Source: a virus. From it: a stretch of 64,000 nucleotides of DNA. Under the pieces are notes generated by a model. The model was not told the origin of the DNA. It worked only from the letters and a program-made list of their open reading frames with translations, and made no database searches. The stretch is taken from the IMG/VR virus record IMGVR_UViG_3300009068_000023, one strand, 5' to 3'. The position numbers were made by a program, and so were the translations under genes. Positions 2,913 to 43,821 of the stretch are shown one piece after another (position 1 is the first letter of the stretch; each line of letters starts with the position of its first letter).

Positions 2913-3125
2913 ATGATTGCCTGGGTATACTATATTGTAGTAATGAATGCAAACCACTCAATTGATATTGAAGTGAAGTATTTTAATGAATATAGTCAAT
3001 GCGAGAAATACATGCACAGCAATCACAAAAAGCTCATCAAGCTCTACTATCAACCCGAGACACAGAAGATGGTTGGCGGTGGTTGTCGTCGCGAAGGCTT
3101 CAGGGTTCCCAGGAAGGGCGGTTGA
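2913..3125 (+). CDS. hypothetical protein
   Basis: 70-aa ORF; its TGA stop lies in the next -35 box. Confidence 0.55.
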   Translation: MIAWVYYIVVMNANHSIDIEVKYFNEYSQCEKYMHSNHKKLIKLYYQPETQKMVGGGCRREGFRVPRKGG

Positions 3126-3180
3126 CTTAATTCTCGTGCTGAGCTAAAATTAGTTCAACATTGAGAGAAGGAGACATGAG
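3122..3180 (+). promoter_or_regulatory. early promoter/leader cassette 1
   Basis: TTGACT-17-TAAAAT, then TAGTTCAACATTGAGAGAAGGAG. Confidence 0.85.
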
Positions 3181-3384
3181 ATGGCTAAGGTAACCGTATT
3201 TTATAAGACGACTCTCTATTACGAACAGGTCGTCGAAGTTCCCGATGAAAACATCGCAGGTGAATGGCCTAATCAAACTGTGGTTAACGCGTTTGATATG
3301 ATTGTTGAACAGTTCAACTATCTTAATGAAGTTGACTGCGAGTCTGACATCGAGAGCGTCGTTGTTCATGGGTTGACCTCTTGA
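3181..3384 (+). CDS. small acidic hypothetical protein
   Basis: Directly downstream of cassette 1 with AAGGAG RBS. Confidence 0.7.
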   Translation: MAKVTVFYKTTLYYEQVVEVPDENIAGEWPNQTVVNAFDMIVEQFNYLNEVDCESDIESVVVHGLTS

Positions 3385-3440
3385 CTTAATTTTCTCGCCA
3401 GACTATAATTAGTTCAACATTGAGAGAGAGGAGAAGCAAG
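3381..3440 (+). promoter_or_regulatory. early promoter/leader cassette 2
   Basis: TTGACT-17-TATAAT, then TAGTTCAACATTGAGAGAGAGGAG. Confidence 0.9.
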
Positions 3441-3647
3441 ATGAACACGAAAGAAGCACTGGCAATCATGGAACAGATCCAAGCGTTCCTGCAGCAGCAC
3501 GTCAACAAGGATGCTGACTTCATCCATGCGATGGAGTACACGCGAGACAACCTCGAGAGTTGTTATCAGGAAGAGAAGGAAGCGTATGCCCACCTGGTCG
3601 TGGAGATGCGCAAGATGTTCGCAGCAGTCGAGTCCATCAGGGCTTGA
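3441..3647 (+). CDS. small hypothetical protein
   Basis: ATG at 3441 after GAGGAG RBS. Confidence 0.7.
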   Translation: MNTKEALAIMEQIQAFLQQHVNKDADFIHAMEYTRDNLESCYQEEKEAYAHLVVEMRKMFAAVESIRA

Positions 3648-3704
3648 TTTTATTCTCACGCCAGCTTTTAATTAGTTTAACAAGATGAGAGAGGGGAATG
3701 CATA
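3644..3704 (+). promoter_or_regulatory. early promoter/leader cassette 3
   Basis: TTGATT-17-TTTAAT, then TAGTTTAACAAGATGAGAGAGGGG. Confidence 0.75.
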
Positions 3705-3944
3705 ATGAAAGTATCTGAACTGATTGAGCTGTTAGAAGGCTTCGATGCAGAAGCTGAAATCCATTTTACGTATGGATACAATGACTATTGGCGCACTCAG
3801 GTCGCGCCGGCTGTTCGTGATGTATTCGAGGGAGAGGTTGAGTATAGTGAATATCACAGAACGGACAAGCTGCTTGAAGCCTATGAAGGTCCTGAAGACG
3901 ATGACGACGACCGAGTAGTGAGGAAGGTTGTAGTTATTCAATAA
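3705..3944 (+). CDS. small acidic hypothetical protein
   Basis: MKVSELIELLE-type N-terminus common in phage early proteins. Confidence 0.7.
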   Translation: MKVSELIELLEGFDAEAEIHFTYGYNDYWRTQVAPAVRDVFEGEVEYSEYHRTDKLLEAYEGPEDDDDDRVVRKVVVIQ

Positions 3945-3952
3945 CGATTATA

Positions 3953-4031
<79 letters not shown>

Positions 4032-4046
4032 TTACATAGGACTAGA

Positions 4047-4262
4047 TTGGGACAGAGCAAACTAGGATCGTTATATGAATCCATCATCAATGTAGGGACT
4101 GGATTCCTTATATCGACAATATCCCAGATCCTGATCTTTCCATTCTTCAACATTCACATTGCATTAACCGATAATATTTTAATCGGTATAATCTTCACAA
4201 TCATAAGTATAATCAGAAGTTACGTCATCAGACGCATATTCAACTCATTGGAGAGCAAATGA
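4047..4262 (+). CDS. small two-TM membrane protein
   Basis: Two hydrophobic helices; S..ES..N...G and R.Y..RR.FN pattern typical of a common phage family. Confidence 0.65.
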   Translation: MGQSKLGSLYESIINVGTGFLISTISQILIFPFFNIHIALTDNILIGIIFTIISIIRSYVIRRIFNSLESK

Positions 4263-4339
4263 ATCAACGACAACAAGAGCAATTAGAATCGTACATGAAG
4301 CTCTATGACAAAGAGATCGCCATCATTCCATGGATTGTC

Positions 4340-4930
4340 TCAGTCATTGGATTGTTTTCGATTGCGGCGATTCTGCTCTCGTAGCCAGATAGCCTCCTGC
4401 ATTTTAACAACCGACCGCCCCCTCTTCCAGCCCGAAGGGATTGGCCAGCCGTTGAATCGTTTCTCTTCATCGGATAATACATTAACTATCCAGAACCAGC
4501 CCTTGGCGTTTTTATATTTGCGCATCACAGCCGATTGCCATTTACGCCGTTCTTCTGACATGGGCCCCCGACCAGTTTTCTTTTTACCTCTATTACTAAC
4601 ACCAATACGATAACGATGCAATGCAGATAATCCACCATGAGATGGATTCTTTAACTTCATTTGCATAGACTTAATAGGACGCTTAAAGCCTTTGGCAGTT
4701 CGTCGTATAAGAACATCAGAACGAAAAGTAAAAGAACCATACGTCCGTTCCCATATTGGCTTACGAGTAGCAATTAAATGCTTGTTAGATTGCTTCTCTA
4801 TTAACTCAATTAGATGTTCTTTAGTATTGTAATGCTTGAATATGTCTTTCTCATTCTTTATTACATGTATAATCTTAGAACGAGATCGTTTGTGTGTTAC
4901 TAAGAATATAGAATAAGATGTCGCTTTCAT
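4340..4930 (-). CDS. basic DNA-binding protein with NUMOD3-like repeats (homing-endonuclease-related)
   Basis: SALHRYRIGVSNRG, MSEERRKWQS and C-terminal W.....E.....IPSGWKRGR motifs; no clear GIY-YIG/HNH catalytic motif. Confidence 0.55.
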   Translation of the reverse strand: MKATSYSIFLVTHKRSRSKIIHVIKNEKDIFKHYNTKEHLIELIEKQSNKHLIATRKPIWERTYGSFTFRSDVLIRRTAKGFKRPIKSMQMKLKNPSHGGLSALHRYRIGVSNRGKKKTGRGPMSEERRKWQSAVMRKYKNAKGWFWIVNVLSDEEKRFNGWPIPSGWKRGRSVVKMQEAIWLREQNRRNRKQSND

Positions 4931-5092
4931 AGAGTATATACCGTAAAGATAATAAAACCATGCACTCACATGCATTCTGATTTATATATATCTTGGTTTA
5001 TTAGATATGAAAGAAAAGGTAAAAGGGGTAGAGAAGTCACCTCAGCAGCAATGGGGAGACAAAGGGATAGACATATTATCTCCACTGTGATT

Positions 5093-5156
5093 CGCTATGA
5101 AATACCGCTATGAATTCGCTGTATTCCCGCTATGAAACCGCTATGAAAACTCTATG
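5093..5156 (+). repeat. tandem CGCTATGAA repeats with about 11-bp period
   Basis: Copies at 5093, 5106, 5128, 5139; degenerate copies at 5117 and 5150. Confidence 0.85.
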
Positions 5157-5222
5157 CGTTGACATGCGCTACAATGTACAGCTAACCATTAGCGCATTCA
5201 GCTTTCGCGCGCATGATCTTCC

Positions 5223-5251
5223 ATTATGACTGATCTCTGAAATTAAATCAA
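5223..5251 (-). promoter_or_regulatory. leftward sigma70-type promoter of the cassette family
   Basis: Minus strand reads TTGATT-taatttcagagatcagt(17)-CATAAT. Confidence 0.7.
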
Positions 5252-5343
5252 CTCAGATCAGTAGCGCAATTTGTTTTAGGTGCTAGGGCTGTGGGCCACC
5301 CGCCCCGTCCATCCCGAGCGCTGCTCATCGAATCAGTAAGATC

Positions 5344-5372
5344 ATTGTACGCGTTTCCGGAAAAAAAGACCA
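5344..5372 (-). promoter_or_regulatory. leftward sigma70-type promoter of the cassette family
   Basis: Minus strand reads TGGTCT-ttttttccggaaacgcg(17)-TACAATGA, resembling the 7095 promoter. Confidence 0.55.
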
Positions 5373-5395
5373 GCACTTTTGGGGCGAGAAAGTTG

Positions 5396-5452
5396 TTGAC
5401 TTTATTTTCGCGGCAGGATATAATGAATCATCATGAGAGAGAGGAGAGAGAA
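5396..5452 (+). promoter_or_regulatory. early promoter/leader cassette 4
   Basis: TTGACT-17-TATAAT-GAATCATCATGAGAGAGAGGAG. Confidence 0.9.
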
Positions 5453-5668
5453 ATGAGCAATCAACGTGAGATGGTTCTTGACAGCCAGCTGGATGTTCTG
5501 GATAGCGCAATCATCGCCATCGGTCGTGCGATTGATGAACTGGATGAAGCTGATCGCTTTCCCGATCTGGATACCAAGGATGCGATCTTCAAGCTCGAAG
5601 CGATTCGTCAAGACCTGGAAGATCAGTACATGCTTATCGAAGACGAATTGCGTCAAATCGAGGCTTGA
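5453..5668 (+). CDS. small acidic coiled-coil hypothetical protein
   Basis: ATG after cassette 4; stop lies in the next -35 box. Confidence 0.75.
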   Translation: MSNQREMVLDSQLDVLDSAIIAIGRAIDELDEADRFPDLDTKDAIFKLEAIRQDLEDQYMLIEDELRQIEA

Positions 5669-5718
5669 CTTTATTTTCGCGTCAGGATATAATGAATCAT
5701 CATGAGAGAGAGGAGAGT
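5665..5718 (+). promoter_or_regulatory. early promoter/leader cassette 5
   Basis: About 50 bp identical to cassette 4 except one base. Confidence 0.9.
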
Positions 5719-5907
5719 ATGATGACGGAACTGAAACAAATCACGCTGGTGCTTAACGCCGATGAAGCCGAGTTCTTGGCGCAGGCGTTGGAGATTCACG
5801 CAGACAAGTACGCAGGCAGAATCTCGTTTGTTGAGGAGCTCGATCGCTACGTGCGTTCGACTCTGCAGACGAAGTTCGATCCGGCCTTTGCGGAGGACGT
5901 AGAATGA
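5719..5907 (+). CDS. small hypothetical protein
   Basis: ATG after cassette 5. Confidence 0.7.
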   Translation: MMTELKQITLVLNADEAEFLAQALEIHADKYAGRISFVEELDRYVRSTLQTKFDPAFAEDVE

Positions 5908-6056
5908 CTGAGCAACAGATTGAGCTGATCGTTGAGAAGTGGTTCGACCGCATCGACCGTCAGTATATGGGCAACGAGTTATCCTATCAAGACTACATGG
6001 CAGAGGTCGAGGCCGTGCGCCTCTGGGCTGATGCGAAGTATGCTGAGATGACGGCG

Positions 6057-6114
6057 TTGCATTAATTTCCTCAGGAAGCTACAATGAAGTACATTGTGAG
6101 AGAGGAGAAAGACG
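6057..6114 (+). promoter_or_regulatory. early promoter/leader cassette 6
   Basis: TTGCAT-17-TACAAT-GAAGTACATTGTGAGAGAGGAG. Confidence 0.85.
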
Positions 6115-6282
6115 ATGTACGATGCAGATGGATGGGATAGCTACGCCGCGTACGCTCATGAGCAGATGCTCGAGCTGATGTTCAAGGAGTCGGACGATTG
6201 CGTGGAGTTTGTCAACAAGTGGATCCAGGATCAGCTGGCCACTGCAGTTCCTACGGAAGTGTTTCAGGAGATTGGGCAATGA
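6115..6282 (+). CDS. small acidic hypothetical protein (not in ORF track)
   Basis: MYDADGWDSY...; follows cassette 6. Confidence 0.65.
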   Translation: MYDADGWDSYAAYAHEQMLELMFKESDDCVEFVNKWIQDQLATAVPTEVFQEIGQ

Positions 6283-6473
6283 GTGCAATGAGTGATCTGG
6301 ATATCGTCAAGCAAGAGGTCTTCGCGTTCTTGGATGACCTGCGGTTGAGCGGTGAGACCAACATGTACGGTGCAGCGCCGTACATAGTCGAGGTGTTTGG
6401 CGTGAACAAGGCTGAGGCGCGCGTCCTGTTGAGTGCATGGATGCAGACGTTCAGCGAGCGGCACGCAGCGTAA
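6279..6473 (+). CDS. small hypothetical protein
   Basis: FLDDLRLSGETNMYGAAPY motif; ATGA coupling. Confidence 0.7.
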   Translation: MSAMSDLDIVKQEVFAFLDDLRLSGETNMYGAAPYIVEVFGVNKAEARVLLSAWMQTFSERHAA

Positions 6474-6479
6474 GAACCG

Positions 6480-6660
6480 ACCAGGTGGTGTACGGCTGCC
6501 AAAGCCACCGGGTGACTATGAGCAGGGTCGAGCCTGGGACATGACCCAAAAACAGGCAACGATTTCCCCCGGTGGTCTCAGTTCCTCTCTCACTCCCCGC
6601 TGAGACCACCACCAACCTGTCGCCTGTGTGCGACCCCGGACCAGTAACCGGGACCTTTTC
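6480..6660 (+). ncRNA. putative structured RNA with an anti-leader (anti-SD) loop
   Basis: Perfect 11-bp stem 6571-6581/6600-6610 enclosing TTCCTCTCTCACTCCCCG; outer stems ACAGGC/GCCTGT and GGGTCG/CGACCC; no credible ORF. Confidence 0.6.
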
Positions 6661-6663
6661 TGG

Positions 6664-6722
6664 TTGTGTTTTTTTCCTGAAGATGTCATAATGAAGTACA
6701 TTGTGAGAGAGGAGTGAAAGAA
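6664..6722 (+). promoter_or_regulatory. early promoter/leader cassette 7
   Basis: TTGTGT-17-CATAAT-GAAGTACATTGTGAGAGAGGAG (leader identical to cassette 6). Confidence 0.8.
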
Positions 6723-7094
6723 ATGCAAGCAACCTACACCTTCGACGAAAACATCGTCAGCGATCTGCACAAGGATGCATACGGCTTCCGTCCGAGCCAG
6801 TCGTTCTGGGAATACTGGGACGAGGCCAACGACGACCGCAAGCAGCGGATCTGGGACAACCTGCTGGATGCCCTGGATCGTGAGATGGAGTTCCAGCGTC
6901 AGCGTGAAGCTGAGGCCGTGGTGATTTTCGATGAGATGCTCGATCGACTGTACCGAGCCGGTGCGAAGGACTTCACGATGGCGATCAAGTGGGCACATGA
7001 TGCGCACGAGACGAACGGTGACGATGAGTTCCTGGAGTATCATCTCGGTCTGCCGTACCGTCACATCCGCAAAGCTCGCGAGGCCACGAAGTAG
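6723..7094 (+). CDS. hypothetical protein
   Basis: SDLHKDAYGFRP motif seen in many phage early proteins. Confidence 0.75.
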   Translation: MQATYTFDENIVSDLHKDAYGFRPSQSFWEYWDEANDDRKQRIWDNLLDALDREMEFQRQREAEAVVIFDEMLDRLYRAGAKDFTMAIKWAHDAHETNGDDEFLEYHLGLPYRHIRKAREATK

Positions 7095-7107
7095 TGGCCT
7101 TTTTTTC
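7081..7107 (+). terminator. intrinsic terminator overlapping the -35 box of cassette 8
   Basis: AGGCCAC-gaagta-GTGGCCT followed by a T run. Confidence 0.7.
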
Positions 7108-7156
7108 GTGTGGCGCCGATAATGAATCATCAAGAGAGAGAAAGAGGAGTAGGGAA
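7095..7156 (+). promoter_or_regulatory. early promoter/leader cassette 8
   Basis: TGGCCT-17-GATAAT-GAATCATCAAGAGAGAGAAAGAGGAG. Confidence 0.65.
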
Positions 7157-43394: not shown

Positions 43395-43414
43395 AATAGG
43401 AGTAAATAATTGTA

Positions 43415-43422
43415 TATAAATA
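43415..43422 (+). promoter_or_regulatory. T4-type late promoter upstream of tmRNA
   Basis: TATAAATA. Confidence 0.65.
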
Positions 43423-43448
43423 ATTTAACTGATGAAATTTTAAACAAT

Positions 43449-43692
43449 ATTGCTGTATGAAGTAGAAGGAAAAGGGTTCTGGACGCGAGTTCGATTCTCG
43501 CCATCTCCACAACGACGGGGATGTACAGGTTTCGACAGGGCAATGAGTACAGATATGGACAGCACGTCAGGCGATCGACGTAAATGAAGCAGAACTAGTA
43601 AACGCAAACGATAGCGATTACAACATGGCTCTTGCTGCCTAAACAGTAAGATACGGAGTTTAGAGGCTGTACTTGGCAACAGAAACAGCCTC
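43449..43692 (+). ncRNA. ssrA: circularly permuted (two-piece) tmRNA
   Basis: T-arm and CATCTCCA (43502-43509) precede GGGGATG (43517) with a G3:U pair; tag ORF 43604-43642 ANDSDYNMALAA*; 3' hairpin with TGGCAACAGAA as in alpha-type tmRNA. Confidence 0.9.
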
Positions 43693-43821
43693 ATCTTTAA
43701 AGGAGAAAATTATGATTGATTCGTTAATTTGGATTCTAGTAGGTGCTTTTATTGGATGGCATGTACCTCAACCTTCGTGGGCCGCTATTATTAAGAACAA
43801 GGTTATGGAGATGATTAAGAA

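Follow-up and report, generated by a model that had tools for sequence, protein, structure and literature searches.

The subject of this work is a short intergenic segment within a 64,000-nucleotide (nt) stretch of viral DNA, hereafter the window (IMG/VR record IMGVR_UViG_3300009068_000023), which is part of a T4-like myovirus with a G+C content of approximately 39% and includes genes for a ribonucleotide reductase, a gp6-type baseplate wedge protein and a lysozyme-domain protein. Between positions 3122 and 7147 the window holds eight repeats of one arrangement, in which a sigma70-type promoter (TTGACT, 17 bp, TATAAT or variants) is followed by a GA-repeat leader with a Shine-Dalgarno (SD) sequence and by a start codon. 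In cassette 6 of this array, two overlapping early genes, for proteins of 55 and 64 amino acids (aa), are followed by approximately 200 nt (6474-6675) that reach into the promoter of cassette 7 and that, on comparative evidence, are a conserved, structured non-coding RNA of the plus strand, belonging to a new family (Table 1). As an earlier, sequence-only reading of this DNA (the initial annotation) had noted for about 190 nt, the segment is free of open reading frames (ORFs): 6474-6663 contains no supported ORF. It has no transfer RNA (tRNA) match, and ARAGORN reports no tRNA-like gene at the locus. The suggested search of Rfam returned no family for the plus-strand RNA, either at gathering cut-offs on the window or at E values up to 10 on 6300-6800. 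Hammerhead and hepatitis delta virus-like topologies were considered by eye and do not fit.

The part of the RNA on which the interpretation turns is hairpin H3, whose stem is formed by GGTGGTCTCAG (6571-6581) pairing perfectly with CTGAGACCACC (6600-6610), with a U6582-G6599 wobble as the twelfth pair. The loop segment TCCTCTCTCAC (6583-6593) is exactly antisense to GTGAGAGAGGA, which is present in leader 6 (6096-6106) and in leader 7 (6703-6713); direct reading of the window confirmed this hairpin and its 11-nt complementarity to the leaders, and every coordinate that the initial annotation had given proved correct. On the plus strand of the 64 kb TCCTCTCTCAC occurs a single time, in the H3 loop, and GAGAGAGG occurs nine times in the window (1.6 expected), six of them within cassette leaders. 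When both strands of the 64 kb were scanned in 30-nt segments for duplexes with the H3 loop, the top partners, besides the loop's own complementary strand, were leader 6 (-21.5 kcal/mol) and leader 7 (-21.3 kcal/mol), and leaders 2-5 (-17.5 to -17.8 kcal/mol) were within the top 0.2%. On the same leaders the 3' end of 16S ribosomal RNA reaches approximately -9 to -11 kcal/mol, a value calculated with a generic sequence in place of that of the host. The computed fold of the isolated RNA leaves the loop unpaired with a probability of approximately 1, and of 2000 shuffled versions of the 190 nt, 6 contained an 11-nt complement to any of the eight leaders.

Table 1. Features of the RNA and of the adjoining cassettes (positions in the window)
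Feature	Position	Strand	Remarks
RNA 5' domain: H1, S1, possible S2, then A-rich linker	6474-6562	+	H1 and S1 pairing kept through two-sided changes
H1	GGTGGT 6484-6489 / GCCACC 6504-6509	+	loop GACGGCUGCC conserved
S1	GGGTC 6525-6529 / GACCC 6543-6547	+	two-sided changes in relatives
S2, possible pseudoknot stem	GCCTG 6532-6536 / CAGGC 6553-6557	+	invariant
Conserved single-stranded UUUCCCCC, 5' of H3	6563-6570	+	from alignments; also the breakpoint of L230 and L259 divergence
H3, 12-bp hairpin with 16-nt pyrimidine loop (6583-6598)	6571-6610	+	two-sided changes at 7 of the 12 pairs between lineages
H4, GTCGC/GCGAC hairpin	6619-6634	+	stem conserved; loop varies in sequence and in length (5-14 nt)
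H5, CCCGG-ACCAGUAA-CCGGG hairpin	6635-6652	+	near-invariant across lineages
Alternative terminator-like hairpin AACCGG 6646-6651 / CTGGTT 6660-6665, with T run 6669-6675	6646-6675	+	overlaps H5 and the next -35 box
Cassette 6 PeSL-type early promoter and leader	6057-6114	+	-35 TTGCAT 6057-6062, -10 TACAAT 6080-6085; repeat family D1/D2
Cassette 6 leader GTGAGAGAGGAG (SD)	6096-6107	+	start codon ATG 6115
55-aa early gene	6115-6282	+	partner 5' of the RNA, kept in divergent lineages; identity 71% (L258) and 40% (L259), alignment A5
64-aa early gene	6279-6473	+	ATGA overlap with the 55-aa gene; directly 5' of the RNA in all RNA-bearing lineages
Cassette 7 PeSL promoter and leader	6664-6722	+	-35 TTGTGT 6664-6669, -10 CATAAT 6687-6692, likely transcription start A6700
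Cassette 7 leader GTGAGAGAGGAG	6703-6714	+	start codon ATG 6723
Cassette 7 gene, 123 aa	6723-7094	+	phrog_21968, no assigned function; then terminator 7080-7101

Relatives were sought by protein-guided and pattern searches, and the region was found solely in lake metagenomes and their viral contigs. The close relatives are L001/L226/L231 (a 145-kb, 85%-complete contig), L002/L225, L224, L003/L223/L235/L257, L236/L233 and the fragment L265; homologues of the downstream gene led to a further two lineages, L258 and L259, which are clearly divergent. Among the close relatives, 97.6% of the alignment cells in five local helices are paired and six pairs have changed on both sides, and a control in which the partners were slid by 1-3 columns gave almost no two-sided changes. 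With L258 and L259 added, in an alignment guided by, and thus fitted to, the structure model, eight pairs have changed on both sides, seven of them among the 12 of H3, with 97.5% of the cells paired, and no shuffle equalled this result. The model-guided alignment was adopted because the MAFFT alignments (A6, A9 and A10) set the divergent H3 stems out of register. Stem covariation, a check that had been proposed from the outset, is thus borne out, with the stem rewritten and the loop motif kept: the H3 stems differ by lineage (GGTGGTCTCAGT, GGTGGCCTCGGC, AGAGGCGCCA, GAGGCGGCCA), every loop contains CCUCUCUC, and this core is invariant in all lineages. Since most relatives have a G-A mismatch at the tenth pair of H3, the perfect stem is peculiar to the window. 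The 3' domain of each lineage folds on its own into the same three hairpins (z-score -2.7 to -4.8), with a loop of 16-19 nt left open. Several conserved pairs are G-U on the plus strand and would be A-C on the minus strand, which assigns the RNA to the plus strand. The outer stems that the initial annotation had drawn around H3 (ACAGGC/GCCTGT and GGGTCG/CGACCC) can be formed in the window but are broken in most relatives, and local hairpins with two-sided changes stand in their place.

One of these local hairpins is H1, in which the stem takes the forms CATCGG/CCGATG (L235), GATGG/CCATC (L259) and GACAG/CTGTC (L258) around a constant loop, GACGGCUGCC; S1 appears in relatives as GGGAC/GTCCT and GGATG/CATCT. 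The loop of S1 can pair with CAGGC 6553-6557, which gives an H-type pseudoknot followed by the A-rich linker, and this stem, S2, is neither supported nor refuted by the alignments because its sequence never varies. The minimum free energy of the 5' domain is indistinguishable from that of shuffled sequence, and the support for its predicted fold is comparative. At the other end of the RNA, H5 is probably the stem-loop part of the next promoter element, that of cassette 7, and the GC-rich stem with a T run is present in the window, L231, L235, L258 and L259 and absent in the L236/L233 variant.

The relation between loop and leaders extends to all lineages. In every lineage, genes directly behind a cassette promoter carry GA-repeat leaders, with which the loop forms duplexes of -15 to -23 kcal/mol, whereas internal, translationally coupled genes have plain SD sequences and reach -6 to -12 kcal/mol. 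In the L231-type RNAs the complement to GTGAGAGAGGAG amounts to 12 nt, and an A-to-G change in the L235 loop retains the pair as G-U. The leaders of L258 are of the form GGAGAGAGA beside the AUG, and its loop reads CCUCUCUCUCC; for the leader sets of L258 and L259 the loop of the same lineage is marginally the best. RNA-bearing loci have a 15-50 times higher density of GA-repeat leaders than 72 distinct RNA-free loci with a homologue of the 64-aa protein, a comparison confounded by the fact that the RNA-bearing loci are all interrelated.

The cassettes around the RNA correspond to PeSL (promoter-early stem-loop) elements, which are defined by a stem-loop, an AT-rich stretch, a sigma70-like early promoter with -35 and -10 boxes, an SD sequence and a start codon (PMC4122927). 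PeSLs of T4-type phages are repeated in hyperplastic regions and mediate the shuffling of cassettes (PMC2839356; PMC4122927). In the window the stem-loop, the sigma70-like -35 and -10 boxes, the SD sequence and the start codon recur in eight copies in a variable region (3122-7147). Boundaries of insertions, deletions and replacements between close relatives also coincide with these elements: the replacement in L230 begins just 5' of a PeSL promoter, and the cassette differences of L258 and L259 fall at the same joints.

The same modularity extends to the RNA itself, whose 5' and 3' domains are separable, to judge from their distribution among the contigs. In L230 the 5' domain is kept as far as the C run, beyond which another PeSL cassette follows, and this contig illustrates clearly how cassettes are replaced at PeSL joints; on the reverse strand of its first 2.4 kb the PeSL family is a different one (ACAAAGTAGTTGCAC...TACAAT), and approximately 2.1 kb of other cassettes, including an ATPase-like gene, lie between the RNA 5' domain and the cassette 7 gene. 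In L259 an ORF-like stretch of 71 codons and further hairpins separate the two domains, and L258 has an insertion of approximately 45 nt at the joint between them. In the L235-type RNAs a structured insert of 64 nt directly follows the stop codon of the 64-aa gene (L235:1870-1933; also in L223, L257 and L236); it contains the small palindromes CCCACGTGGG, CCCTAGTCTAGGG and TCTAG...CTAGA and might represent either an additional, fourth module of the RNA or a small mobile element. L236/L233 has a longer H4 loop, lacks the T run and carries a 3' extension with a partial duplication of H4-H5. Extra modules resembling H4-H5 (a hairpin, then CCCCGGAnnAGUAACCGG) are found at L259:2300-2500, behind a second, gene-less promoter, and at L236:1110-1173 as the partial duplication, and the H4-H5-like module seems to multiply on its own.

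Parts of the region are present in three lake metatranscriptomes, from three studies. This evidence consists of assembled contigs, which attest presence in RNA libraries and not ends, strand or amounts, and for this reason no conclusion on the processing or abundance of the RNA is drawn. In two of the runs the contigs end at 6484 and 6477, with 6485-6699 uncovered, and in the third a contig of the L231 variant covers 6433-6689, which includes the whole RNA. One metatranscriptome contig corresponds exactly to 6700-7087: it starts at A6700, 8 nt past the CATAAT of the -10 box, and extends as far as the terminator (7080-7101); it outlines a complete monocistronic early transcript of cassette 7 and fits the predicted transcription unit.

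On the explanation that we tentatively favour, transcription from the promoter at 6057 yields an early two-gene message whose 3' untranslated part is the RNA. The RNA consists of two modules, a 5' domain with H1 and the pseudoknot-like element and a 3' domain with H3, H4 and H5, in which H3 holds the 16-19 nt pyrimidine loop permanently open. As its most likely role, this loop would base-pair with the GA-repeat leader, that is, with the SD region near the mRNA 5' end, that the PeSL early cassettes share; the pairing would block binding of the 30S subunit and silence each cassette, and the silencing would extend to the whole cassette because its second gene is translationally coupled. From the sequences compared, pairing with the leaders and repression of translation is a serious possibility that still falls somewhat short of being probable. 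Such an RNA could act in trans on many cassettes; equally possible is action in cis, with either the leader at the 5' end of its own transcript or, after read-through, leader 7 as the target. Leader 7 sits 110 nt 3' of the loop and is fully complementary to it, with a terminator-like site and a separate promoter in between. In nested folds of the whole cassette 6 transcript, the window and L257 show leader 6 paired with the loop, L258 and L259 do not, and in the window pairing with this leader is favoured by approximately 5 kcal/mol; nested folding of full transcripts is too unreliable to choose between action in cis and in trans. A broader version, in which a stable RNA freed from the 3' untranslated region (UTR) would pair in trans with the leader of all PeSL cassettes and shut off or cap the early regulon, with its maturation or stability controlled by the pseudoknot domain at the 5' end and by both small proteins encoded upstream, is doubtful. 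This low estimate for a global, one-to-many timer reflects the stoichiometry, the case of L230 and the unexplained extra domains, which are taken up next.

Several observations weigh against antisense action of the RNA. Pairing between a CU-rich and a GA-rich sequence is of low complexity, and the 9-nt matches to leaders 2-5, which the initial annotation had listed and which are real, mean little on their own because 9-nt complements to leaders are found in 8% of ordinary 190-nt windows of the genome. Co-evolution of loop and leader, which had been suggested as a further check, is weakly visible: a slight preference for the loop of the same lineage exists in L258 and L259, but it is weak evidence because any CU repeat pairs with any GA repeat, and the L233 leader variant (GTGAG to ATGAG) has no compensating change in its loop. 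L230, a partial contig, keeps GA-rich leaders with no H3-H5 at the locus, so that the leaders can be retained in a homologue that lacks the loop there; the other lineages keep a loop that fits their leaders. The loop of H1, the pseudoknot-like domain, H4 and the near-invariant H5 are all conserved, and simple antisense action does not explain them. Stoichiometric silencing in trans by an RNA present in a single copy and made from one of at least eight leader-bearing cassettes would need a much higher stability. Finally, the conservation of the leaders, for which this RNA had been offered as the reason, requires no RNA, because it is already accounted for by the biology of the published PeSL elements to which the cassettes conform (PMC2839356; PMC4122927).

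Other functions can be assigned to the same structure. The conserved loops, including the pyrimidine loop, might bind a protein or the ribosome instead of the leaders (candidates are S1, Hfq or one of the small upstream proteins), in which case the fit to the leaders would be a by-product of simple purine and pyrimidine repeats. The conservation of the H1 loop GACGGCUGCC, of UUUCCCCC and of the H5 loop while the stems change speaks for such binding sites, as does the retention of the 55-aa gene, the 64-aa gene and the RNA as a unit whose proteins are 40-71% and 53-58% identical, respectively; by analogy, the small protein CcaF1 binds the CcsR RNAs and helps to mature them (PMC8034643). The 64-aa protein is an awkward partner, however, since its family is huge (3450 clusters), 77 other phage loci carry the family without the RNA, and it has no recognisable RNA-binding fold or family among Pfam, PHROG or PDB neighbours; binding of this kind also leaves the exact 11-12 nt fit of the loop to leaders 6 and 7 unexplained, and is considered unlikely, if still worth entertaining. 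The region could also be a transcription device at the end of the cassette, either a C-rich Rho-loading region with hairpins or a terminator or insulator between early units, so that the YC-rich loop and its C-rich flanks would serve termination and not antisense pairing. The strongly negative GC skew (-0.34 over 6550-6650), the conserved single-stranded runs UUUCCCCC, UCCUCUCUCAC and CCACCAACC, the terminator-like hairpins at the 3' end directly 5' of the next promoter and the upstream stem-loop that forms part of the PeSL definition all agree with this. Rho sites, however, are usually unstructured and poorly conserved, and here the motif lies in the loop of a hairpin with two-sided stem changes; the T-run terminator is absent in the L236/L233 variant, and 190 nt of conserved structure exceeds what termination needs, because other cassettes of the array end in a hairpin of approximately 20 nt (7080-7101). 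Taken together, these points make a device of this type improbable.

Still less probable is that the hairpins only shield the 3' end of an early mRNA from exonucleases, or are leftovers of shuffling, and that the match between loop and leaders has no function. The region is indeed modular and reshuffled, as seen in the insertion of L235, the extension of L236, the 5' half alone in L230 and the separated halves of L259, but a functionless loop should drift, and here the core is invariant while 7 of the 12 stem pairs are rewritten; in addition, the 11-nt complement, rare among the shuffles, falls in the one loop that is fully open. The initial annotation had offered a further alternative, a minus-strand transcript that would expose the leader sequence in its loop as a decoy. 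A hairpin of that strand would indeed display GGGGAGUGAGAGAGGAA, but the loss of the conserved G-U pairs to A-C argues against it, no minus-strand promoter was found near the RNA, the T run and the gene orientation fit the plus strand, and the minus-strand fold is no better than shuffled sequence (z-score -0.94), all of which makes such a decoy extremely improbable.

Structured phage RNAs whose loops pair with a ribosome-binding region are well known: they include the C4 RNA of P1 and P7, the CI RNA of P4 and the sar RNA of P22, which serve temperate phages in immunity or lysogeny and have one or two dedicated targets. P1 produces its C4 RNA and the target downstream of it from a single transcript, and the RNA described here resembles C4 in being a structured phage RNA for which leader 7, in read-through transcripts, would parallel that arrangement. 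Unlike C4, its loop complements a leader common to at least eight early cassettes, and the two have no relationship in sequence or in Rfam. Early-gene shut-off in T4-type phages is attributed to protein factors, through promoter takeover and through the nuclease RegB, which inactivates early mRNAs at GGAG. If the phage RNA represses, it would share with RegB, itself a protein, the outcome that early messages are inactivated via the SD region; a search of the 85%-complete relative gave no match to the RegB family, a result that does not prove its absence.

The closest functional analogues are the CcsR1-4 or cuckoo RNAs of Rhodobacter and rhizobia (Rfam ar14 group; PMC8034643; PMC4615179). In the CcaF1-CcsR locus, a small-protein gene is followed by RNAs derived from its 3' UTR, with hairpin loops of anti-SD sequence, which are matured by RNase E, aided by the small protein (PMC8034643). 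Like CcsR, the phage RNA is placed in the 3' UTR of a small-protein gene with which it would be transcribed, and it has a loop with a C/U-rich anti-SD motif from which many mRNAs could be reached. Unlike CcsR, its motif is CCUCUCUC(UC) (the loops read UCCUCUCUCACUCCCC, ACCUCUCUCUCCAAAUCUCCU and ACCUCUCUCUCACUCUCC) and not the cuckoo motif CCUCCUCCC; it has one motif hairpin and one copy, in the window as in the 145-kb relative, where the cuckoo RNAs have two hairpins per RNA and usually tandem copies; the plus strand of 6474-6675 matches neither ar14 nor related Rfam models even at E values up to 10; and the 55-aa and 64-aa proteins upstream are not DUF1127 proteins (CIN1 subgroup) and have no Pfam match. 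It belongs, moreover, to a lytic T4-like phage, whose own shared early leaders are the targets that fit it best. The phage RNA may therefore work like a cuckoo RNA, but it is not one, because motif, number of hairpins, Rfam model and DUF1127 neighbour all fail to agree. As to the PeSL elements, the cassettes around the RNA match those described (Arbiol 2010, PMC2839356; Comeau 2014, PMC4122927), and H5 with the terminator is probably the stem-loop of PeSL 7; the available portion of PMC4122927 treats PeSLs as short regulatory or recombination motifs and mentions no long structured RNA or loop antisense to the leaders.

If the broader version, with action in trans on all PeSL cassettes, is correct, the RNA would be a counterpart of RegB made of RNA and the first riboregulator tied to mobile promoter-leader modules of the PeSL type. 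With an RNA matched to the leader that every mobile early promoter cassette brings along, any cassette gained later would automatically come under this additional level of control, and the shuffling of PeSLs would be connected with regulation after transcription. Quite apart from its role, the RNA represents a new family of structured RNA, characterized by compensatory changes in its stems, by an invariant loop and by a pseudoknot-like domain, and found so far only in uncultured freshwater phages.

The unit formed by the promoter, the 55-aa gene, the 64-aa gene and the RNA is kept in both L258 and L259, in which the 64-aa protein is 58% and 53% identical, respectively. Neither small protein has a match in Pfam or PHROG. 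The 64-aa protein belongs to an uncharacterised family of 3450 representative clusters at 50% identity, mostly of 57-90 aa, with the motif FLDxLRxSGxTNMFGAxPY...W; it is predicted to form a three-helix bundle (pLDDT 89), the model has no significant neighbour in the PDB, and larger proteins that hold the same domain have no informative Pfam name. A 60%-identical homologue adjoins ERF and YqaJ recombination genes in the G+C-rich contig L232.

With respect to distribution, one copy of the RNA is present in the window and one in the 145-kb relative. Scans of IMG/VR with 14-mers from the RNA gave approximately 200 loci, all by chance save three known contigs, and the loop pattern recovered the same three contigs only; in 185,579 species genomes this pattern had 14 matches, none in a hairpin and all attributable to chance. 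Among 77 phage loci of IMG/VR with a homologue of the 64-aa protein, no copy of the RNA 3' domain was found. A DNA-level search (blastn) of 5900-7100 against the GenBank phage collection returned no match. The region of cassettes 5-8 and the RNA (5.7-7.7 kb) is an island of approximately 53% G+C within the approximately 39% of the genome, which suggests that these cassettes came from a source richer in G+C.

As for the host group, hints may come from a tRNA-Met at 3953-4031 of the window and from a transfer-messenger RNA (tmRNA) gene at 43402-43733, which scores 134 bits with the permuted (two-piece) model and 95 bits with the betaproteobacterial tmRNA model and whose tag peptide is ANDSDYNMALAA. 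A scan with the H5 pattern yielded one new relative, the fragment L265, the rest being unrelated or coding. A 20-nt hairpin, CCCCGGAnnAGTAACCGGGA, is also present in unrelated viral contigs (L262:11928-11957 on the minus strand, L264, L266 and L267), once in an intergenic position 5' of a T run and otherwise at gene ends; approximately three matches are expected by chance.

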